Sequence record: PX104378.1
Strand: one strand, 5' to 3'
DNA from: a phage
DNA length: 64,000 nucleotides
Positions 2,883 to 59,368 of this stretch are shown in pieces. The notes beneath the pieces were generated by a model that was not told where the DNA came from, ran no database searches, and saw only the letters and a program-made list of their open reading frames with translations. A program made the position numbers and the translations under genes. Within the stretch, counting starts at the first letter, position 1; every line of letters begins with the position of its first letter.

Positions 2883-3401
2883 TTAGTTATTTTTTAATTG
2901 CTCATCTTGCAATAAAGCAATCACATGCTGGCGATGTTCTTCCGATTGAGGCACACCGAAAAAGTTTGTTTTGTAGAAATACTCTAATCGGTCTTCTCGT
3001 GTGCTCTCTTCCATCATGATCGCGGGTAGTCCGAGATTTCGGAAACGTCGCTTTTCTGCTGGCGTAAAATCGCTGTAATACAGCATAGAATCATCATTAC
3101 CAGCAATGCTAAACTCATCCTTCATGAAGGAGAATATTGCGTTTAAACGCTGTTTACCGTCCACTATTTCGATTTCATAGCGAGAGCCATCATCAATCTT
3201 AGCCATTGCGATAGCACCAACCGGAAAATCATTAATCAGGTTTTCGATAAACATACGTTTGTTTTCGGTGTCCCATACCAAAGGACGCTGATAATCTGGG
3301 TTCATGTTGATATAGCCATCTTCTAACCACGCCTCATAAACAGAGATGACAAAGTTTTTAGTATTGGTATAGTAACGGCGTTTAGGAGTTAAACGGTTCA
3401 T
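2883..3401 (-). CDS. standalone DUF262 / ParB-like domain protein
   Basis: 172 aa; YQRPLVW and IVDGKQRLNAIF match the DUF262 QR..VW and DGQQR motifs; no DUF1524/HNH partner domain. Confidence 0.6.
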   Translation of the reverse strand: MNRLTPKRRYYTNTKNFVISVYEAWLEDGYINMNPDYQRPLVWDTENKRMFIENLINDFPVGAIAMAKIDDGSRYEIEIVDGKQRLNAIFSFMKDEFSIAGNDDSMLYYSDFTPAEKRRFRNLGLPAIMMEESTREDRLEYFYKTNFFGVPQSEEHRQHVIALLQDEQLKNN

Positions 3402-3577
3402 AGTGTGCTTACCTTTTCAATATATGCGTCCGCATACTGGCGAATGCTCATTTCTTCTCGTACTGCTGCTACAAATTCTTTCATGGATTCAAACCATTTG
3501 TAGGTGTCGCGATACATGACCAACTCTTCCCAAGTAAGATCGCAAATCTCTTTACCGTGTAGTTGTGGTGTTATCAT
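3398..3577 (-). CDS. small hypothetical protein (59 aa)
   Basis: ATGA start/stop overlaps with both neighbours (translational coupling); not in ORF track because under 60 aa. Confidence 0.4.
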   Translation of the reverse strand: MITPQLHGKEICDLTWEELVMYRDTYKWFESMKEFVAAVREEMSIRQYADAYIEKVSTL

Positions 3578-3912
3578 AATATAGTTCTCCTGAATGGATC
3601 ATCACGTAAATCAATATCTTTTAAGAACTCATCCCATGAATAGCGGATATTGTTCTTAATTCTCCAGATAAGCGCAGGGATTGAACGCTCTCCCATCTGG
3701 AAGTATGGATCGTATGATCCGTATGCCCAATATGCTACTACAATTCCACAATCAGCGCAATAGTATTCTATTTCACTTGCTGGCGACAAAAGTCCATCAA
3801 TATGATCAGTGATCTTGCTTTCGATGTTATGGCTATGACAATCAGGGCAACGGATGCAATGACCTTGTTTATCGTAATTTGACGTTAGCGAATACTTAAA
3901 CAATCTCATCAT
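3574..3912 (-). CDS. Cys/His-rich Zn-binding protein (112 aa)
   Basis: CIRCPDCHSH ... CADCG cysteine/histidine cluster; 4-nt overlaps with flanking genes. Confidence 0.5.
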   Translation of the reverse strand: MMRLFKYSLTSNYDKQGHCIRCPDCHSHNIESKITDHIDGLLSPASEIEYYCADCGIVVAYWAYGSYDPYFQMGERSIPALIWRIKNNIRYSWDEFLKDIDLRDDPFRRTIL

Positions 3913-4625
3913 AGATCCTTATTGGCTTCAAATACTGCCTTTGCGAATCCTCGCGGGGTAAGTGACCTGATAGTCTTTGTTCTGGTTCCTTTCCCGCCTA
4001 GCTTAGAATGCTGTTTACTGTACCCTTTCTCAATCGGCAACGGTTTCTTTTCTGGCATTATAAAGCCTTGTCCGGTCCATAAGCAAGTCTTTTTCGGGTA
4101 CATATCACGGGCGGCAATATACTCAGGAAACGTAGGATGTATATCATCTTCCGGCAAATAACCGCCATATTCCCACGGGTGGAACATGTAATCAGGCTTA
4201 CGCCACATGCTAGAGATAACGCTTACAGGATTCTCTATCATGTAGGGAACTCCTAGCCATTCACCCAAATAAGCGGTTATTTTAGCTGCCCGTACATCAT
4301 GAACTTGAATTAATGGTCCTTGCTCTCGTTTCTTTCGTTCAAAGTGTGCAGCGCCACTAACAGCTAAATTGGTACACGGTGGGAATGCAAAGATAATATC
4401 CGGTTTCCCCCATTCAAGGTCCATTGCTCTTTCCAGCCAATTCAAATCAATCCATGTGTTTACATAGGTAATGTTTGGATGTTCAAATCGGGTATTATAT
4501 TTTTTGTATGTACCGTGGTCGCCGTCGTCAGCATTGAAGCAGATCACCTTATGACCTGCTTTAGCCCATTCTAGCCCCATTATCCCCGATCCGTCAAAGT
4601 TGCAGAATATTAATTTTTGTTTCAT
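3909..4625 (-). CDS. truncated C5-cytosine methyltransferase-like protein
   Basis: 238 aa; FCNFDGSGIMG (motif I FxGxG), FPPCTNLAVSG (motif IV PC), YMIENP (motif VI ENV-like); no TRD or motifs IX-X. Confidence 0.5.
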   Translation of the reverse strand: MKQKLIFCNFDGSGIMGLEWAKAGHKVICFNADDGDHGTYKKYNTRFEHPNITYVNTWIDLNWLERAMDLEWGKPDIIFAFPPCTNLAVSGAAHFERKKREQGPLIQVHDVRAAKITAYLGEWLGVPYMIENPVSVISSMWRKPDYMFHPWEYGGYLPEDDIHPTFPEYIAARDMYPKKTCLWTGQGFIMPEKKPLPIEKGYSKQHSKLGGKGTRTKTIRSLTPRGFAKAVFEANKDL

Positions 4626-4867
4626 ATACGCCCCTTTAACCCAACACAGATTTTAGAAGGTTCTTTACCGTGCCACATTAAGTAAAGTCCGTTAGTGCGG
4701 CCTTGTTTTGTATATGATTCTTTTCTAATCTTCTTATAGTGTCGTGCTTCCTCAACCGATTGTTTAGAATACCAATCATAAAGGAAGATGAACAAAGGCC
4801 AACCATTAGCGGCCTTAATGCAGTTATTAAGAAATTCCTTATTGCGTTTAATTAATTTTCTTTTCAC
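4622..4867 (-). CDS. hypothetical basic protein (81 aa)
   Basis: ORF with 4-nt overlaps to both neighbours. Confidence 0.5.
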   Translation of the reverse strand: MKRKLIKRNKEFLNNCIKAANGWPLFIFLYDWYSKQSVEEARHYKKIRKESYTKQGRTNGLYLMWHGKEPSKICVGLKGRI

Positions 4868-5115
4868 GCTGCCCCCGTTGGTTTGATAGTAACAGAATCT
4901 AAAAGACCTTTGTTAGCCAGTTCGCGGCAAGTTTTCAGATCCGCAACTTCCCAGCCAGCCGCAATCAGGTTATCTATGAGGCTGTTAGCAACTTCCTCGC
5001 TCATGAAAGAGCACTGTTTGCCGATGGTGTAGCGTACACGCTGTAATTTCAGTTTACGGAAGCCTTTAACGTTCAGGTCTTTAGCGATTTTCTTTGCGGT
5101 TTCGATGTTAGCCAT
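4864..5115 (-). CDS. hypothetical protein (83 aa), first gene of coupled operon
   Basis: starts MANIE; conserved leader AGGAGAATCAAACAATG downstream of promoter cassette. Confidence 0.55.
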   Translation of the reverse strand: MANIETAKKIAKDLNVKGFRKLKLQRVRYTIGKQCSFMSEEVANSLIDNLIAAGWEVADLKTCRELANKGLLDSVTIKPTGAA

Positions 5116-5155: not shown

Positions 5156-5184
5156 ATTGTAGGGGAGTTATCCTCCCCTGTCAA
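5156..5184 (-). promoter_or_regulatory. sigma70-type early promoter cassette
   Basis: TTGACA-GGGGAGGATAACTCCCC(17)-TACAAT on minus strand. Confidence 0.55.
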
Positions 5185-5198
5185 CACTTTTTATAAAA

Positions 5199-5366
5199 TT
5201 ATTTGTTAATTTCTGGTGCGTTGCTAGGATAGTAACCTTCTTTAACTCCGAGGTATTTCGCAACCATCCCTACAATCTTCTGTGCTACTACAATGTCAAA
5301 TTTCAGATAATCTTCGCCGTGGGTTTCAATGATATATGCTTCACATGCTGCTTTAGTCTCGAACAT
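5199..5366 (-). CDS. small hypothetical protein (55 aa), paralog of 8461..8628
   Basis: MFETKAACEAYIIETHGEDYLKFDIVVAQKIVGMVAKYLGVKEGYYPSNAPEINK; nearly identical to the 8461..8628 product. Confidence 0.5.
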   Translation of the reverse strand: MFETKAACEAYIIETHGEDYLKFDIVVAQKIVGMVAKYLGVKEGYYPSNAPEINK

Positions 5367-6192: not shown

Positions 6193-6501
6193 TCATTTAG
6201 ACAAATAATCATTCTGTGCAATCCGGTCGGCGTATGCTGGTGTTACGTCAATCGCAATCACTTTAACGCGTGCTTTCTTGCGACCTGGGTTTTCTCGTAA
6301 CCAGTGCTCATGACCGTGAACATTTTTATACTGCGATGCTTCTTCGAAGGTACGGATCGGACCTGGGTAATCAGCGTAAAGGATCTCTAGATCTTCGGTG
6401 ATGTAAAAATATACATCGTAATTGCTGTTCTCTAGCTTAAGCAGAGACTTTCGGAACATTGGGAGATTTTCGCGGGTAAATTCAAAGATATTATCTTTCA
6501 T
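6193..6501 (-). CDS. HxHW-family small protein, copy 1 (102 aa)
   Basis: HGHEHW ... VKVIAIDV motif shared with five paralogs; GAGGA SD. Confidence 0.6.
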   Translation of the reverse strand: MKDNIFEFTRENLPMFRKSLLKLENSNYDVYFYITEDLEILYADYPGPIRTFEEASQYKNVHGHEHWLRENPGRKKARVKVIAIDVTPAYADRIAQNDYLSK

Positions 6502-6920: not shown

Positions 6921-7199
6921 TTATAAAATAATTTTTTGATATTTTTCTATGATGTTCGTGTAATCCACATCAACCGCTATCACCGTTGCTTCGAATCCAC
7001 CGTTTAGCCAATGGCTATGGTCATGATCGTGAAAGAAACCAAGACCAGTACGAAGACCTTCTTTATATTCGGCGCGTACATTTAGATCATCATCGATAAA
7101 CAGATAAAACCATGAATTTTTACTAGGATTGATGATACAACCTTTCAGATTAGGGAGAATATCACGACTAAGAATAAACTTATCACCTACTTTGAACAT
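6921..7199 (-). CDS. HxHW-family small protein, copy 2
   Basis: HDHDHSHW ... TVIAVDV; start moved to internal ATG (MFKVGDKF) that has a GAGGA SD. Confidence 0.55.
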   Translation of the reverse strand: MFKVGDKFILSRDILPNLKGCIINPSKNSWFYLFIDDDLNVRAEYKEGLRTGLGFFHDHDHSHWLNGGFEATVIAVDVDYTNIIEKYQKIIL

Positions 7200-7203
7200 A
7201 ATA

Positions 7204-7524
7204 TTAGTCCTCACTTATAAGGTCAAACCAATTGTTTTTCGCATAATGCTTAATGCGTGCTTGATCTGCTTCTGCTGGTGATAGATTCCATGCAACCACT
7301 ACAACTTCTGACGCATCGTCATCCGTTTCTGATACCCAATGATTATGATTCATACAATTGTTTGCTATCGCGTGAGCAAATGATTTCATCACTGGAGACG
7401 TATAATCATAGTAACGGATTTTCAGATTTTCATCAACGTACAAATAGATCGTATAAGGTTTATATTCAGTAACCAGTAACAGACAGTTACGCAATTCTGG
7501 GAAAATATTTTTAGTTAATTTCAT
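7204..7524 (-). CDS. HxHW-family small protein, copy 3 (106 aa)
   Basis: NHNHW ... VVVVAWN; GGAGAA SD. Confidence 0.55.
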   Translation of the reverse strand: MKLTKNIFPELRNCLLLVTEYKPYTIYLYVDENLKIRYYDYTSPVMKSFAHAIANNCMNHNHWVSETDDDASEVVVVAWNLSPAEADQARIKHYAKNNWFDLISED

Positions 7525-7739
7525 ATTCTAGTTCTCCGTAATACACGGTAATCCATTTTTTCTTCATACTTTGTATCTTTCCAACACACAATCCCGTTTA
7601 CTGTGCAATCTTTGGAATTGACGAATGATTCATATTGTTCTGCATCTTCCATCATTGCATGAGCGGTCTTTTCATCGAATATATCGCAGATCGCTTTATA
7701 TGCTCGATAATCTTTAAATTTGCTCATAATTAAGACCAC
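7521..7739 (-). CDS. hypothetical protein (72 aa), tandem paralog A
   Basis: MSKFKDYRAYK... shares N-terminus and C..W..T.Y pattern with 7730..7939. Confidence 0.5.
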   Translation of the reverse strand: MVLIMSKFKDYRAYKAICDIFDEKTAHAMMEDAEQYESFVNSKDCTVNGIVCWKDTKYEEKMDYRVLRRTRI

Positions 7740-7939
7740 TCAAGAGTTTTTGAAAACACATCTATCCATTGTTGAGTATATGCGGTTTCTTTCCATGATA
7801 CAATACCAGTCGAATAATGGTTTTTGTTTCCAGAAAAGGACGGGCATTTTGAGGCATCTTCCATCATCTTTTCGGCGAACTCTGGTTCGTATACTCGCAA
7901 GATCTGTTGATATGCTTTATAATCTTTAAATTTGCTCAT
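7730..7939 (-). CDS. hypothetical protein (69 aa), tandem paralog B
   Basis: MSKFKDYKAYQ... paralog of 7521..7739. Confidence 0.5.
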   Translation of the reverse strand: MSKFKDYKAYQQILRVYEPEFAEKMMEDASKCPSFSGNKNHYSTGIVSWKETAYTQQWIDVFSKTLEWS

Positions 7940-8204
7940 AATTGTTAACTACCTTATCAGCTTCTTTTATTGTTTTTACATCAACTGCGATAATCCGTAA
8001 AGGTTCGTCGAAGGTCCACCAATGATCGTGATTATCAGCTTGTGATTTATCACCAAAGGAATCACGAATATCATTTTTACATTTATAGCTAATGTGACCT
8101 TCATAGTCAACATAAAGGTAATTATCAAAAATCGGCGTTTTTAAGATCATACCGAAAAATCTTTCTTTGTGTGTCTTATCCAGCGTTGCAGTAATTCGCA
8201 TCAT
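7926..8204 (-). CDS. HxHW-family small protein, copy 4 (92 aa)
   Basis: DNHDHWW ... RIIAVDV; AGAGGA SD. Confidence 0.6.
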   Translation of the reverse strand: MMRITATLDKTHKERFFGMILKTPIFDNYLYVDYEGHISYKCKNDIRDSFGDKSQADNHDHWWTFDEPLRIIAVDVKTIKEADKVVNNYEQI

Positions 8205-8460: not shown

Positions 8461-8628
8461 TTATTTGTTAATTTCCGGTGCGTTGCTTGGATAGTAACCT
8501 TCTTTAACACCCAGATATTTTGCAACCATTCCGGTGATCTTCTGTGCTACTACGATATCGAATTTCAGGTAGTCTTCACCGTGGTTTGCTACAATGTATG
8601 CTTCGCATTCTGCTTTAGTCTGGAACAT
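8461..8628 (-). CDS. small hypothetical protein (55 aa), paralog of 5199..5366
   Basis: MFQTKAECEAYIVANHGEDYLKFDIVVAQKITGMVAKYLGVKEGYYPSNAPEINK; start taken at internal ATG behind the cassette leader. Confidence 0.5.
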   Translation of the reverse strand: MFQTKAECEAYIVANHGEDYLKFDIVVAQKITGMVAKYLGVKEGYYPSNAPEINK

Positions 8629-8662
8629 TTTTGATTCTCCTATATCTCGTTGGTATGTGTGC

Positions 8663-8692
8663 ATTATAGGGGATCGGTGACCCCCCTGTCAA
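8663..8692 (-). promoter_or_regulatory. sigma70-type early promoter cassette
   Basis: TTGACA-GGGGGGTCACCGATCCCC(18)-TATAAT on minus strand. Confidence 0.55.
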
Positions 8693-8699
8693 CAACTTT

Positions 8700-9002
8700 T
8701 TATTCTTCGTCTTTATCTTTATATGCGTATTTCATAAATTTGTCTGCCACTTCGTCCGCGTTTTCAGGTTCTACGTCTGACGCTAGGACAACAGCTAGTT
8801 CGGTTTTGTCGTTTCCATCATACCAATGATTATGAGTGTCGTTTTCTTCGATATAAAACGAATCATTTGGATATGGGCGACAATATACGTCTAAATTCCC
8901 ATCGATATAAAAGATCCAATCCGAATACAAAATGATTGTTTTAGCCAGATTTTTATTGTCTCTTACAAAAGGTTCCGCGACAAATAGCTTAGTTTGTTCC
9001 AT
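8700..9002 (-). CDS. HxHW-family small protein, copy 5
   Basis: THNHW ... LAVVLASDV; start at internal ATG (MEQTKLF) with GAGGAG SD. Confidence 0.55.
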   Translation of the reverse strand: MEQTKLFVAEPFVRDNKNLAKTIILYSDWIFYIDGNLDVYCRPYPNDSFYIEENDTHNHWYDGNDKTELAVVLASDVEPENADEVADKFMKYAYKDKDEE

Positions 9003-9018
9003 AGTAATCTCCTCAAAA

Positions 9019-9210
9019 TTATACAACTTCGTAAACTTCCCAATGTCCAACACCGGAACGCTTAACGAAAAGGTTTTCTTTGATGTTATTCATAAACGTC
9101 TGGATGGATTTAATGCGGTTGGAAGGTTTCCAGTCTTCGTTGGCATTGCGGCGATACATAATAACATTACCAGTTCTCTTATATTCAGCAACCATTTTAA
9201 GACCACACAT
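9019..9210 (-). CDS. hypothetical protein (63 aa)
   Basis: ORF with GAGGA SD 9 nt upstream. Confidence 0.4.
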   Translation of the reverse strand: MCGLKMVAEYKRTGNVIMYRRNANEDWKPSNRIKSIQTFMNNIKENLFVKRSGVGHWEVYEVV

Positions 9211-37171: not shown

Positions 37172-39940
37172 ATGGCAGATTTAAGCAGAATCCAATTTAA
37201 ACGCACTAGCACTAAAGGTCGTCGACCTGATGCTGGTACGATGAATCCGGGTGAGTTGGCGATCAACTTAGCCGACCAATATTTGCTTACTAAAAACGAC
37301 TCAGGTGCTATTATCAATTTAAGTTGTCCTCCGGTGTATGACCGCGATGTTACAATGGCTGGTAAAGTTAAAGGTAATAATTATATCTTAAGTAAAACCG
37401 CTAACTATCTGGAAGATCAGACAGCGCGAGATCTTAACTACTTTGGTGCTTTCCGTACCAATGGTCTTGATGGTTTTCTAGAACTAACGCTAAACGTTCC
37501 TCATTCTTCTGGTGTTCAGCATGGTCGAGGATTTACTTTCCAGTATGGTCACACTGGATCGCGAGTAGAAACCTATGGCTATAATAGAGAAGGTCAAAAA
37601 GCATTCAGCTATAAAATGTATCACGAAGGTGATAAACCAACTCCAGGAGAATTGAACGTTTATAGCAAACAAGAAGTAGATAGAATGTTTGTTAAGAACG
37701 TTAAACTTGCTACAGTTCCTGGTGATACAGTTGAAGGCTATTTTAAATTAGCAACTGCAATGATTCCACAAAATGGTCGTAGTGTATTTTTCCGTATTCA
37801 TGGTGGTAACGGATATAACGTTACTGCATACGATCAAGTTGATATTGTAGAAATTGTTATTCGCAGTGGAAATAATCGCCCTAAAGGTGTTAACGTTATT
37901 GCATATCGCCGAAATACAAACAAATCATTTGATGTTTTGGCTGTTAATACTTCTGGTGATAACTATGATATCTATGTGAAATATCAGCGTTACACTGATA
38001 ACGTTATTGTTGAATTTGGTAAAAGTGTTGATGTTAATCTGGTAGTTCATGACGTTCCAGATTTTGTTGCTGAACGTCCTGCTGGTGATAATGTTATTGG
38101 CGGTCGCGCGGTAACTCTTTTCAACACCGAAAATAAACGTGGTGTGTTGAGTTTTGACGATAACACACAAAATAGCTATGATATTGTTCACTTGAGTAAT
38201 GATAAAGGTACTGGACGAAAATATATTCGTAAATTCCGTAGCAACTATAATGAAATGATCTGGCATGAGACTGTTCAAGGTTCCAGTTATCGTCTGGCTA
38301 CTGGTAGCACTGATGCTCAGGAAATTATGACTATTGAATCTAGTAGCTCAATTGCTGGAACTCATAAAGGTAATATTATTTCTGGTCGTATGCTGTTAAA
38401 TGGCGGATCTAATGCCATTACACTACGCCGACCTGCTGGTCAATCTAATCATATTGCGTTTCAAGATAATCGTACTGGAGATATTACCCGTCAAGGATGG
38501 ATCGGTTATGCAAACGCCGATACTGACGTTTTTGAATGGTATAGTGATGTAGGTGGCAGTTCTATTCGTCAACATATCGACGGACAGATCGAATTTCAGA
38601 CAGGTAACATGAAGCGAGTTTATACCAACGGTCAATTCATTTCTTTATATGCTGATGGCTTCCGTACTGTATATGGTAACTATGGATCATGGTGGCGAAA
38701 TGACGGTAGTAACGTTTATCTGATGAGCACAAAATCAGGCGACGCTATGGGTCCGTGGAATACCTTTAGGCCGTTCATATACAGTCTCGCCAATGGAAAC
38801 GTTACTCTAGGTGGTAGCGATGCTGGCAATCATTTAATGCGTCTCAATAATGAAAATCGTCAAGTAGAAATAAATGCAACAACACATTTAGGGTCTCGAT
38901 TATATTGGGAACGTAGCGAAGGATCGGCATCTAGATTTTTTATTAAGAATTGGGGTAATGGAACTTCTCGCGCTCAAGTGTGGGAACTTGCTGACGAGAC
39001 AGGTTATCATGTATATTCTCAGCGAAACGACGCGGGTGTTCTTCAATTCCGTACTGCTGGTAATTTTGAGACTGGTGGTGATGCTCAAGTAAACGGGACT
39101 TTACGTGTCACCAATGTTCTTCGAACAGATAACCAAATTCAGATTTATCGCGATAACAACAAAGAACTCTGGTTTAAGGATGCTAATGGTACTAACCGTG
39201 GTGTTATCTGGGGTGATAGCACAGGTCAAATGCGCATTCGAAACTATAACAGCGGAGAATTTGACCATGTTTTCCAGACTGGTATGATTCGCTTAGAACG
39301 TGGGTATGCAAACGGTAGCGACCGTGGTTTGATTCGCGGAGAAGTACAAGGTGGTGCTTGGTCAGAATGGAAAACTCGCGCTGCTGGCTTATTGGTTGAC
39401 TGTCCAGCTGCTCAAACTTCCGCATATAACGTATGGAAAGCGACCAAATGGGGTTTAGACCACATCGCGGCAATGGGCGTTCATGTTCCTAGTGGTGTTA
39501 TTACTAATGCTATGGCACGTCTTCATATTCATACCACAAACTTTGACTTTAACGCATCTGGTGATTTCCAAGCTGGTCGCAATGGTAACTTTAACGATGT
39601 TTACATTCGCTCTGATGCTCGCCTGAAAATCAATAAGGAAGAGTATAAGGAGAATGCCACCGATAAAGTTAATCGCTTGACGGTATACACCTATGACAAG
39701 GTTAAATCTTTAACCGACCGTACTGTCATTGCTCATGAAGTCGGTATTATTGCTCAGGATCTTGAAAAAGAATTGCCGGAAGCAGTAACAACTTCTAAGG
39801 TCGGCGATCCTGATAAGCCAGAAGAGATCTTAACAATTTCTAACTCTGCTGTCAACGCTCTTTTAATTAAGGCGTTTCAGGAAATGAGCGAAGAATTGAA
39901 AGTCGTTAAAGCTGAACTAGCGGAACTTAAAAAGAATTAA
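37172..39940 (+). CDS. 37: long tail fibre distal subunit gp37 with C-terminal intramolecular chaperone domain
   Basis: 922 aa; N-terminus QFKRTS..GRRPDAG...GELAINL matches T4 gp37; C-terminal SDARLKINKEE...GIIAQDLEKELPEAV resembles peptidase S74 domain. Confidence 0.8.
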   Translation: MADLSRIQFKRTSTKGRRPDAGTMNPGELAINLADQYLLTKNDSGAIINLSCPPVYDRDVTMAGKVKGNNYILSKTANYLEDQTARDLNYFGAFRTNGLDGFLELTLNVPHSSGVQHGRGFTFQYGHTGSRVETYGYNREGQKAFSYKMYHEGDKPTPGELNVYSKQEVDRMFVKNVKLATVPGDTVEGYFKLATAMIPQNGRSVFFRIHGGNGYNVTAYDQVDIVEIVIRSGNNRPKGVNVIAYRRNTNKSFDVLAVNTSGDNYDIYVKYQRYTDNVIVEFGKSVDVNLVVHDVPDFVAERPAGDNVIGGRAVTLFNTENKRGVLSFDDNTQNSYDIVHLSNDKGTGRKYIRKFRSNYNEMIWHETVQGSSYRLATGSTDAQEIMTIESSSSIAGTHKGNIISGRMLLNGGSNAITLRRPAGQSNHIAFQDNRTGDITRQGWIGYANADTDVFEWYSDVGGSSIRQHIDGQIEFQTGNMKRVYTNGQFISLYADGFRTVYGNYGSWWRNDGSNVYLMSTKSGDAMGPWNTFRPFIYSLANGNVTLGGSDAGNHLMRLNNENRQVEINATTHLGSRLYWERSEGSASRFFIKNWGNGTSRAQVWELADETGYHVYSQRNDAGVLQFRTAGNFETGGDAQVNGTLRVTNVLRTDNQIQIYRDNNKELWFKDANGTNRGVIWGDSTGQMRIRNYNSGEFDHVFQTGMIRLERGYANGSDRGLIRGEVQGGAWSEWKTRAAGLLVDCPAAQTSAYNVWKATKWGLDHIAAMGVHVPSGVITNAMARLHIHTTNFDFNASGDFQAGRNGNFNDVYIRSDARLKINKEEYKENATDKVNRLTVYTYDKVKSLTDRTVIAHEVGIIAQDLEKELPEAVTTSKVGDPDKPEEILTISNSAVNALLIKAFQEMSEELKVVKAELAELKKN

Positions 39941-39982
39941 GGAAAACTCCCAGGGAAGGGAAACTACTAAGGAGAAACGGCT

Positions 39983-40222
39983 ATGGTCTATAATATCGTC
40001 ATTGGTGCTTTGTCTAATTTCGGAATGAAACTATTGTCAAAGTTAATTAGTGAAAAGATGCTCACTAAAATTTTCTTCTACTGCGCTCGTCGTCTTGCGG
40101 CTTATACCAATACGCCAATTGATGATCGTTTCGTGGAAGAACTTTATAAGGAGTTTAATAAAGATCAGTCAGAAGATAGTAACGAGCAAGATAAACCTAG
40201 TGATAGTCAAGTACCTAAATAA
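39983..40222 (+). CDS. hypothetical protein with hydrophobic N-terminus (79 aa)
   Basis: AAGGAG SD; sits where T4 has gene 38. Confidence 0.45.
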   Translation: MVYNIVIGALSNFGMKLLSKLISEKMLTKIFFYCARRLAAYTNTPIDDRFVEELYKEFNKDQSEDSNEQDKPSDSQVPK

Positions 40223-40255
40223 GAGTACACTGTCATAGTTATCTTAGGGCATTAT

Positions 40256-40912
40256 ATGCAAGTTTCTGAAAAAGAGAAAGACTTTGCTATCTCAAATGTC
40301 CTGCGCGCTATTTTCACAACTAAAAGCACGGAGTTGCTCGTACTTCGTGTTTTTGCTGCCGTCGTGTTGTCCATATTAGCATTTGTCGTTTATAGTAAAA
40401 ACGAGTTATTTGCGCTTTATAAAGAGACTCGTTATGAGACTTATGCTCACGTTCTCCAGGTAGAGAAAGACCGCAATTTTGATAATGCAGCACAGGAGCA
40501 GTTACAGATAGTTCATGTGTCGGCTGATGCCGATTTTTCTGCTGTTTTTAGTTTTCGTCCGAAAAACCTAAACTATTTTGTTGATTTGGTGGCATATGAA
40601 GGAAAGCTACCGCATACAATTGACGAAAAGAATTTAGGCGGATTCCCTATCAATAAAACGAGTGAAGAATATCGTAGGCATCTTTTAGGTAAATCCTATT
40701 TTACTGATAAAGATTTCCAGTATATTCCATCGAGGGAGAAAAAATTAGAGAATATCGATATAGGGTTTATGTATTCTTGTCCTATATTCAATCTCGATAA
40801 TGTCTATTCTGGTAGTATCGCCATTGCATGGAGGAATAAACCAGATATTGACATTGAGAATTTAGATACTCTTTGCAATCAATCTGCCAGAATCCTCGGA
40901 AGGATCAGATAA
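40256..40912 (+). CDS. t: holin
   Basis: 218 aa (same as T4 T); one TM segment; EQLQIVH.S..ADFSAV.SFRPKNLNYFVD..AYEGKLP and ARILGR match recalled T4 holin. Confidence 0.85.
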   Translation: MQVSEKEKDFAISNVLRAIFTTKSTELLVLRVFAAVVLSILAFVVYSKNELFALYKETRYETYAHVLQVEKDRNFDNAAQEQLQIVHVSADADFSAVFSFRPKNLNYFVDLVAYEGKLPHTIDEKNLGGFPINKTSEEYRRHLLGKSYFTDKDFQYIPSREKKLENIDIGFMYSCPIFNLDNVYSGSIAIAWRNKPDIDIENLDTLCNQSARILGRIR

Positions 40913-58843: not shown

Positions 58844-59368
58844 TTAGTAGCCGCGTTCTTGACGGGCGAAGTTTTCAGCATTTTTCAGATAGTACAGCTT
58901 GAAGATATCCTTAGCGGTTAAACCTAAGCCCAGCATTTTAATCAGCACAAAATGCCAGATATCGATCAATTCCATCGCAATTTCGGTTTTATCGTCATCT
59001 GACAGATCAGCAAATTTACGCGCTCGTGCTTCGCCGTGGTTCTTCTTCCACACTTTAGTAATTGCGCTTGCATCTTTGCCATTTGACATGCCACCCAGGG
59101 CAACATAAAGTTCTCGTGTCTCGTCGTCGATTGCGTCATCCCATAGCTTCATCCAATCAAGGATCTCCCCGCAAGTTTCCAGCTTATCAGGATGCGGCAC
59201 CCACTCAAATTTATCAGCTAGTGCGACCTGTAAGCCTTTTTGCATATCTAACATTACTTGCAGCGGATCTTTGCCGCTAGTGATTGCCTCGGAATACGCA
59301 ATACCAGCTTTAGACATAGTTTCGTCGCTAACCAGACCAGCACAAGAATTAAATTCTGACATATTCAC
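58844..59368 (-). CDS. 56: dCTP pyrophosphatase (dCTPase)
   Basis: 174 aa; DPLQVMLDMQ, HPDKLET, IFKLYYLKNAENFARQERGY nearly identical to recalled T4 gp56. Confidence 0.9.
   Translation of the reverse strand: MNMSEFNSCAGLVSDETMSKAGIAYSEAITSGKDPLQVMLDMQKGLQVALADKFEWVPHPDKLETCGEILDWMKLWDDAIDDETRELYVALGGMSNGKDASAITKVWKKNHGEARARKFADLSDDDKTEIAMELIDIWHFVLIKMLGLGLTAKDIFKLYYLKNAENFARQERGY

Follow-up and report, generated by a model that had tools for sequence, protein, structure and literature searches.

A compact Dcm-like gene in the DNA of an RB49-like phage probably encodes a stand-alone DNA cytosine-C5 methyltransferase

Introduction

Sequence record PX104378.1 comprises 64,000 nucleotides of phage DNA, all of which is referred to below as the window. 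On its minus strand, positions 3909..4625 encode a protein of 238 amino acids, which is classified here, from its ATG-initiated open reading frame (ORF), its match to PHROG 757 and its matches in the genus Krischvirus, as a compact Dcm-like C5-cytosine DNA methyltransferase and as the orthologue of RB49p189. An earlier reading made from the letters alone (the sequence-only reading) had recognized this real ORF without giving its strand, and had described the product as a truncated methyltransferase in a phage that replaces its cytosine. Dozens of Krischvirus genomes already carry an annotation of the gene as a DNA or C5-cytosine methyltransferase, and experiments have already characterized one member of the family. 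Here we present the features of the gene, its family and its surroundings. By analogy with the characterized member, we regard it as quite likely that the product is a stand-alone, catalytically competent DNA cytosine-C5 methyltransferase that depends on S-adenosylmethionine (SAM) and belongs to the compact phage Dcm-like family (PHROG 757).

Gene and sequence motifs

Over a segment of about 2.4 kb that holds the gene, 58 Krischvirus genomes match at 97-98% identity, among them those of RB49, kaaroe, ECD7, GEC-3S and TB34; judged by these matches, the window is DNA of a Krischvirus (RB49-like phage). The protein is 97-99% identical to Krischvirus proteins named DNA methyltransferase, Dcm or C-5 cytosine DNA methylase, and its orthologue in RB49, RB49p189 (717 bp), is annotated as 'DNA methyltransferase'.

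The motifs that the sequence-only reading had listed as FxGxG, PPC and ENP are read from the DNA, in this order, as FDGSG, PPCT and ENP, and their conservation rules out chance. The first, F10-D-G-S-G14 (4584..4598; all features of the window reported here lie on the minus strand), is the equivalent of motif I, the SAM-binding loop after strand 1. The second, P82-P-C84-T (4371..4382), is the equivalent of motif IV and holds the predicted catalytic cysteine, and the third, E131-N-P133 (4227..4235), is the equivalent of motif VI; conservation supports both assignments. The 105 residues that follow ENP hold a KKT-C-L-W strand (residues 178-183), a variable loop and the block IRSLTPRGFAxAV (residues 219-231). 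Within this stretch, the conserved K178-K179-T180 (4086..4094) starts strand 7 and corresponds by position to motif VIII; a short loop of approximately residues 186-212 (3990..4070), distinguished by its variability and low model confidence, stands in place of the target recognition domain; and I219-R-S-L-T-P-R-G226 (3948..3971), defined by conservation and by the structural model, forms a C-terminal, motif IX-like block that is followed by the terminal helix. The sequence IRSLTPRGFA resembles motif IX of C5-methyltransferases. Both FDGSG and IRSLTPRGFAxAV are invariant in alignments of close homologues. According to the alignment and the model, only about 35 residues separate KKTCLW from IRSLTPRG; neither QxRxR, the canonical motif VIII, nor a target recognition domain of large size was found in the 238 residues, and KKTCLW is located at the equivalent strand.

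Family and conservation

The match to PHROG 757 ('DNA methyltransferase', E = 1e-90) covers residues 1-237 and profile positions 12-220 of 247, whereas a search of NCBIfam with the 238-residue protein yielded no match. A large protein database contains 7,322 homologues, with lengths of 219-259 residues among the matches listed, and an exhaustive HMMER scan of representatives at 50% identity yielded 1,170 clusters, mostly of 200-260 residues. As 219-259 residues are the norm among the homologues, the short length is native to the family: it is the architecture of a compact family and not a truncation. The description of the protein as truncated, which is also at odds with the full-length PHROG 757 match and with the KKT strand and motif IX-like block beyond ENP, is therefore abandoned; a short length need not mean truncation.

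The gene was found by tblastn in 1,526 of 50,697 phage genomes, among them those of phages of Escherichia (576), Klebsiella (521), Salmonella (109) and other hosts. The carriers among the tblastn matches span Drexlerviridae, Vequintavirinae, phAPEC8-like phages, Klebsiella siphoviruses and Krischvirus. This compact C5-methyltransferase family is very abundant, being encoded in about 3% of the phage genomes that have been sequenced, and is barely detected by the Pfam family PF00145.

Among 99 distant cluster representatives, the residues of the catalytic motifs are conserved at 98% (C84), 100% (E131), 93% (N132) and 99% (P133), and those of the C-terminal part at 97% (K178), 97% (T180), 99% (W183) and 96% (R220). 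An alignment of 62 diverse homologues showed C84, E131, P133, K178, T180, W183 and R220 to be invariant. The sequence-only reading had considered that homologues might have lost the catalytic cysteine and the glycine loop; the cysteine is retained throughout, and of the glycines of FxGxG in the distant representatives G12 is variable and G14 is 71% conserved.

Predicted structure

An AlphaFold2 model based on an alignment of 21 sequences reached a predicted local distance difference test (pLDDT) score of 88.1 and a predicted template modeling score (pTM) of 0.88. It consists of seven strands alternating with helices, as in the class I fold, with a C-terminal helix at residues 225-235; confidence was lowest at residues 91-100 and 201-210 (pLDDT 63 for the latter). 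The top 24 matches in the PDB, obtained with Foldseek, were all DNMT3B, DNMT3A or DNMT1 (E down to 3e-8, template modeling (TM) scores 0.44-0.50). The fold is thus that of a class I methyltransferase and is closest to solved C5-methyltransferases, with DNMT3B and DNMT3A nearest, and the unrelated fold that the sequence-only reading had named as a refutation was not seen. A fold search of BFVD returned other small phage 'cytosine methylases', followed by canonical viral C5-methyltransferases. When the family profile was aligned with the single sequence of E. coli Dcm using hhalign, motifs I, IV and VI were in register, the ENP of the family being aligned to the ENV of Dcm, in a weak match (E = 0.011, probability 3.7%).

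The catalytic domains of DNMT3A and DNMT3B (PDB 6u8p, 4u7t and 6kdt, among others) share with the window protein the class I fold, the PC and ENV-type motifs and an unusually short recognition region that lacks a large target recognition domain, whereas the identity is only 14-18%. The DNMT3 enzymes also differ in their length of about 280 residues, in their canonical motifs VIII and X and in acting on CpG as DNMT3A/3L oligomers. The canonical PF00145 enzymes (E. coli Dcm, M.HhaI, M.HaeIII) have motifs I, IV (PC) and VI (ENV) in the same order and register, and the same chemistry is expected; they are about 100-230 residues longer and carry QxRxR as motif VIII instead of KKT, and the window protein remains below the Pfam threshold. 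The target recognition domain of M.HhaI comprises about 90 residues, compared with the loop of about 35 residues in the window protein. The name 'Dcm-like' reflects an assumed specificity and not close kinship to the host Dcm.

In uncultured Caudovirales, the same compact fold is also found within helicase-like proteins of 1,100-1,400 residues, where it forms a single domain (BFVD A0A6J5SE15 and A0A6J5NPY6; 24-26% identity, TM-score about 0.62).

Enzymatic activity

The experimental anchor for the family is a study of retron Ec86 (Wang et al., bioRxiv 10.1101/2023.08.16.553469; cited elsewhere as Cell Rep 2024) that used phage K42, for which KarlJaspers (Bas06) serves as the reference, the two genomes being 95.4% identical. 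Every K42 escaper of Ec86 carried a mutation in a 711-bp gene, 'dcm', the product of which is the trigger of this retron (10.1101/2023.08.16.553469). Expressed alone, K42 Dcm raised the 5-methylcytosine content of the multicopy single-stranded DNA (msDNA) as measured by liquid chromatography-mass spectrometry, whereas the C82A/E128A/K175A/K176A mutant did not; K175 and K176 were named as substrate-binding residues, and an AlphaFold2 model of the enzyme was superposed on DNMT3A by the authors (10.1101/2023.08.16.553469).

The 'Dcm-like C5 cytosine methyltransferase' of KarlJaspers shares 56% identity with the window protein from end to end (E = 2e-91). The counterparts of C82, E128, K175 and K176 of K42 Dcm are C84, E131, K178 and K179, which are 97-100% conserved in the distant representatives. 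Like the window protein, the K42/KarlJaspers protein is a single-gene enzyme of the same architecture (236 versus 238 residues); the enzymes of K42, KarlJaspers and aaroes have the same Asn after strand 2 ('CFN'), and that of KarlJaspers shares the IRSLTPRGFA block. They differ in the subtype of the recognition loop, which is GYSxQ in the window protein and DNPGW in K42, aaroes and KarlJaspers, in the type of phage (a Drexlerviridae siphovirus as opposed to a T4-like member of the Straboviridae), and in the gene neighbors, which are a helicase region in KarlJaspers and a Zn-ribbon/DUF262 unit in the window. Because K42 Dcm forms 5-methylcytosine by itself and is near-identical to the 56% identical KarlJaspers protein, the family is considered to be one of bona fide stand-alone DNA C5-methyltransferases.

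Going by the chemistry that C5-methyltransferases have in common, C6 of a flipped-out cytosine would be attacked by Cys84 in the PPC loop and N3 would be protonated by Glu131 of ENP, after which the methyl group of SAM would be transferred to C5. The DNA would be contacted by a conserved insertion between strands 6 and 7 (residues 149-177), by Lys178 and Lys179 and by the loop of about 35 residues, which would take the place that a large target recognition domain has in classical enzymes. A specific short motif would be methylated in the DNA of the host and in that of the phage during its replication, and the most likely benefit would be protection from cognate host restriction enzymes.

The sequence-only reading had allowed for an enzyme acting on RNA or nucleotides. 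In a protein without a large target recognition domain, the choice between DNA and other substrates, namely RNA or tRNA (as for Dnmt2) or free nucleotides, is formally open, but we consider a substrate other than DNA very unlikely. Known nucleotide-level methylation or hydroxymethylation of cytosine uses enzymes of the thymidylate-synthase fold, and td is the only gene for this fold in RB49. Moreover, the top structural matches are DNA enzymes, and the 56% identical orthologue methylates msDNA in vivo (10.1101/2023.08.16.553469).

A catalytically dead binder of DNA or SAM, which the sequence-only reading had also proposed, would accord with the Asn found after strand 2, where an acidic residue is usual, and with the failure to detect 5-methyldeoxycytidine in TB34 DNA (PMC13390438). 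It is nevertheless hardly to be expected: the same Asn is present in the active K42 enzyme and in those of KarlJaspers and aaroes, and the catalytic residues are invariant, Cys84, ENP and KKT being strictly conserved across more than 1,000 clusters.

In WalterGehring (Bas51, Vequintavirus; segment 379-1704), a Dcm-like gene is located 1.3 kb downstream of an N6-adenine methyltransferase gene. The Bas51 N6-adenine methyltransferase is the trigger of retrons Asa1 and Squ1 (PMC12548924), and, as K42 Dcm triggers Ec86, both methyltransferases of this cluster belong to families linked to retron triggering. The 2025 PLoS Biol retron paper (PMC12548924) was set aside as a source of data on the compact Dcm-like family, as it concerns the N6-adenine methyltransferase instead.

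Cytosine in the phage DNA

The window encodes at 58844..59368 a gp56 homologue, an all-alpha NTP pyrophosphatase (dCTPase/dUTPase in T4), which was identified by its 51% identity to T4 gp56 (tblastn match at 58847-59362) and its matches to dUTPase_2 and PHROG 173, and which also matches NTP-pyrophosphohydrolase families in profile searches. The sequence-only reading had named this gene correctly and had concluded from it that cytosine is replaced and that a C5-methyltransferase would find little substrate; the homology stands and the conclusion does not. The complete RB49 genome was assembled from five pieces and searched with T4 proteins by tblastn. In this genome and in the window, T4 gp42 gave only a weak match to td, which encodes the paralogous thymidylate synthase (E = 0.008-0.009), and the alpha- and beta-glucosyltransferases (alpha-gt, beta-gt) gave nothing better than E = 0.7 in RB49, whereas gp56 and Dam were readily found in RB49 by the same search. 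The search for gene 42 and glucosyltransferases that had been suggested thus found none. In RB49, a single small ORF separates uvsX from gene 43, so that the slot of beta-gt and gene 42 in T4 is empty; near gene 55, a-gt.4 and a-gt.5 are all that is left. Of the T4 pathway to hydroxymethylcytosine (hmC), which comprises gp56, gp42 and the two glucosyltransferases, RB49 has the gp56 homologue and keeps cd, td, frd and gene 1; it lacks gp42, alpha-gt and beta-gt, and its DNA is canonical.

These results agree with published data. HpaII and NheI both cleave the DNA of RB49, which was described as unmodified (PMC4041780); TB34 DNA is canonical according to high-performance liquid chromatography-mass spectrometry (HPLC-MS), and Krischvirus was reported to be without 5-hydroxymethyldeoxycytidylate (5hmdCMP) synthase and glucosyltransferases (PMC13390438) and without hmC-related genes (PMC12115623). 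Since RB49 has no gp42, alpha-gt or beta-gt and its cytosine is reported as canonical, cytosine is abundant as a substrate. In an RB49-like phage, gp56 most likely serves the exclusion of dUTP and the supply of dUMP and dCMP; in T4-like phages, the presence of a gp56 homologue is no sign that cytosine is replaced.

The retention of a gp56 homologue in a phage that has cytosine DNA and no gene 42 is itself worth recording, and its preference may have shifted towards dUTP. Two other methyltransferase genes were noted in RB49: a T4-type Dam at 39922-40734, 45% identical to T4 Dam, and RB49p143 at 74465-75304, inside the baseplate module, annotated as 'DNA methyltransferase, similar to rRNA guanine-N2-methyltransferase'.

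Routes that combine a methyltransferase, a TET enzyme and a glycosyltransferase exist in other phages. A similar post-replicative route from 5-methylcytosine to hmC and glycosyl-hmC, with the compact methyltransferase as its first enzyme, would explain a report of 2026 in which the Krischvirus SAP contained hmC and gentiobiosyl-hmC while the 99.96% identical TB34 did not (PMC13390438); in SAP the cytosines were fully modified without a gp42 or glucosyltransferase homologue, and the pathway was called unknown (PMC13390438). We give this scheme next to no credence. The methyltransferase proteins of TB34 (unmodified) and SAP (reportedly modified) are identical, which rules out a difference between them as the cause of the contrast; a motif-specific methyltransferase cannot modify all cytosines; and no dioxygenase or glycosyltransferase was noted in the RB49 annotation, in which not every ORF was scanned. 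The collection that includes SAP also has seven Tequatrovirus phages with a modification profile equal to that of SAP (PMC13390438), which suggests an admixture of samples.

The sole difference between TB34 and SAP in a 3-kb region is a promoter-like insertion of 79 bp in SAP, which includes CCCCTGTCAACAATTTTTTAG and is flanked by the DUF262 gene and the small ORF next to it (positions 564-642 of the SAP segment, against position 563 of the TB34 segment).

Restriction sites and target sequence

Several restriction sites are avoided to an extreme degree in RB49 and the window, with observed versus expected counts of 1 versus 77 for CTGAAG, 0 versus 65 for TCCGGA, 2 versus 46 for GAATTC, 0 versus 44 for ACTGGG and 2 versus 50 for GACATC; GGCC occurs at 0.41 and CCAAG/CTTGG at 0.29 of expectation. 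No such depletion is seen for GATC, and RB49 carries a Dam gene. Such avoidance is the pattern that would be expected of unmodified DNA facing type II enzymes. CCWGG is depleted as well (31 versus 72 expected in the window, 69 versus 180 in RB49, i.e., 0.38-0.43 of expectation). An excess of CTWGG/CCWAG, as a signature of 5-methylcytosine deamination, was not found in RB49 and the window, where CTTGG/CCAAG itself is depleted, and in view of this the site statistics cannot fix the specificity.

A number of observations weigh against the assignment as an active C5-methyltransferase resembling the K42 enzyme. The Pfam PF00145 match is limited to residues 10-100 and scores 13.4 bits (E = 0.052) against a cut-off of 22; just one of the 62 family members reached E < 0.01 with PF00145; and sequence searches of the PDB, with the single protein and with the profile of the 62 members, returned no solved C5-methyltransferase. 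Residue 31, after strand 2, is Asn in the protein's own subfamily and Asp in 92% of the distant members. The C5 class is suggested by the fold, the motif register and one experimentally studied orthologue, and the argument that the Krischvirus enzymes are active is one of likeness to it. As the recognition loop is unlike that of the characterized K42 enzyme, the specificity may differ. A phage that fully protects CCWGG would have no obvious need to avoid it. BL21(DE3) is a strain of the E. coli B lineage. It carries the native retron Ec86, which is triggered by K42 Dcm (10.1101/2023.08.16.553469), and RB49 was propagated on E. coli B (PMC4041780); this growth is unexpected if the Krischvirus and K42 enzymes act identically, and either the specificity differs or the phage evades Ec86. 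Finally, no modified base was found in TB34 DNA by HPLC-MS (PMC13390438), a null result that fits a rare target (69 CCWGG sites in 164 kb) and, just as well, an enzyme that acts on phage DNA little or not at all.

An active DNA C5-methyltransferase that recognizes something other than CCWGG, i.e., another short motif or a relaxed one, has in our estimate close to an even chance, if not quite that. Residues 186-212, with the lowest model confidence, are the sole strongly divergent block in comparison with the K42 and KarlJaspers enzymes, and the depletion of CCWGG and the growth of RB49 on the lineage that carries Ec86 point the same way. The CCWGG specificity of K42 Dcm was itself taken from the host Dcm and was backed only indirectly, by mutants of the msDNA stem, and msDNA was poorly methylated by the host Dcm in MG1655, while its 5-methylcytosine was raised by the phage enzyme (10.1101/2023.08.16.553469); this hints at a different or broader site. 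On the other hand, the cutting of RB49 DNA by HpaII and NheI (PMC4041780) and the missing 5-methyldeoxycytidine peak of TB34 (PMC13390438) indicate that methylation is not widespread, and nothing positive was found for any alternative motif. CCWGG as the target of the window enzyme is likewise only a guess, to which we give, at most, appreciably less than an even chance.

Gene neighborhood

The methyltransferase gene is part of a unit of six ORFs at 2883..5115, delimited by ORF coordinates and domain searches, in which the start and stop codons overlap by 4 nucleotides at every junction. The unit starts with orf83 (4864..5115; 83 residues, matching PHROG 14908 in a profile search) and orf81 (4622..4867), and the methyltransferase gene is followed by genes for a Zn-ribbon protein of 112 residues (3574..3912), which matched only Zn-ribbon families, for orf59 (3398..3577; 59 residues) and, as the last gene, for a DUF262-only protein of 172 residues (2883..3401; Pfam E = 4e-20). 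A candidate sigma-70-type early promoter, TTGACA-17-TACAAT, which matches the consensus at 11 of 12 positions, lies at the head of the unit (5156..5184), and the next strong promoter-like site past the unit, at 2875-2847, matches at 12 of 12; such sites are not enriched in the region (14 versus 10.0 +/- 3.3 in shuffles). The six ORFs are likely to form a T4-type early, translationally coupled unit.

The sequence-only reading had suggested that the methyltransferase is one part of a split enzyme and is completed by the Zn-ribbon neighbor, which, perhaps together with the DUF262 protein, would provide DNA recognition. The overlap of the two genes by 4 nucleotides in one unit and the conservation of their pairing within Krischvirus are in keeping with this, and Zn ribbons often bind nucleic acids (the match to Pfam Zn_Ribbon_TF, E = 1e-4, is below the cut-off). 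The two families have, however, different distributions: the Zn-ribbon family occurs in 358 phage records, mainly of Krischvirus, Nonagvirus and Felixounavirus, and among the matches listed it overlaps with the methyltransferase family (1,526 records) essentially only in Krischvirus. No Zn-ribbon gene is located within 3 kb of the methyltransferase gene in aaroes and WalterGehring, and none is annotated in KarlJaspers. The methyltransferase also keeps its motif IX-like C-terminal block and misses no catalytic motif, and the K42 orthologue acts alone from a plasmid (10.1101/2023.08.16.553469), so that dependence on a partner is unlikely and the split-enzyme proposal is not upheld. The chain of M.AquI, an enzyme of two polypeptides, resembles the window protein in being short in comparison with classical enzymes; it differs in that members of the compact family have the N- and C-terminal blocks in one protein, are active as one chain and have no co-conserved partner. 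An antisense tblastn match of the Zn-ribbon protein inside the methyltransferase gene of WalterGehring (E = 0.002 in a tiny database) was dismissed as chance.

For a stand-alone enzyme without a real target recognition domain, site reading might take place via the insertion between strands 6 and 7 or in a DNMT3-like dimer, and in Krischvirus the translationally coupled Zn-ribbon and DUF262-only proteins might modulate the activity or targeting of the enzyme, e.g., to direct methylation or to blunt modification-dependent restriction of the GmrSD/BrxU type. This arrangement is improbable, and the feeding of a post-replicative hmC pathway like that claimed for SAP is even less likely.

The DUF262/GmrSD_N (ParB-like) protein matches in PADLOC the N-terminal halves only of the defense proteins NsnA (E = 1e-20) and PD-T4-2_A (E = 5e-12); a role as a decoy or regulator connected with modification-dependent restriction is conceivable. 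Weak similarity to the C-terminal region of PADLOC RT_UG35, a DRT defense reverse transcriptase, was found for orf83 (E = 2.5e-5). While orf59 is present in the window, kaaroe and FL04 (99-100% query coverage), it is absent from this position in RB49, TB34 and most Krischvirus genomes (93%), which is a small indel polymorphism within the unit.

Between 6193 and 9053, five paralogous ORFs of 92-117 residues (6193..6501, 6921..7214, 7204..7524, 7926..8204 and 8700..9053) have in common an HxHW motif and a strand resembling V(I/V)A(I/V)DV. Together with two pairs of near-duplicate small ORFs (5199..5366 and 8461..8664; 7521..7739 and 7730..7939), they represent a multi-copy gene family in the early region.

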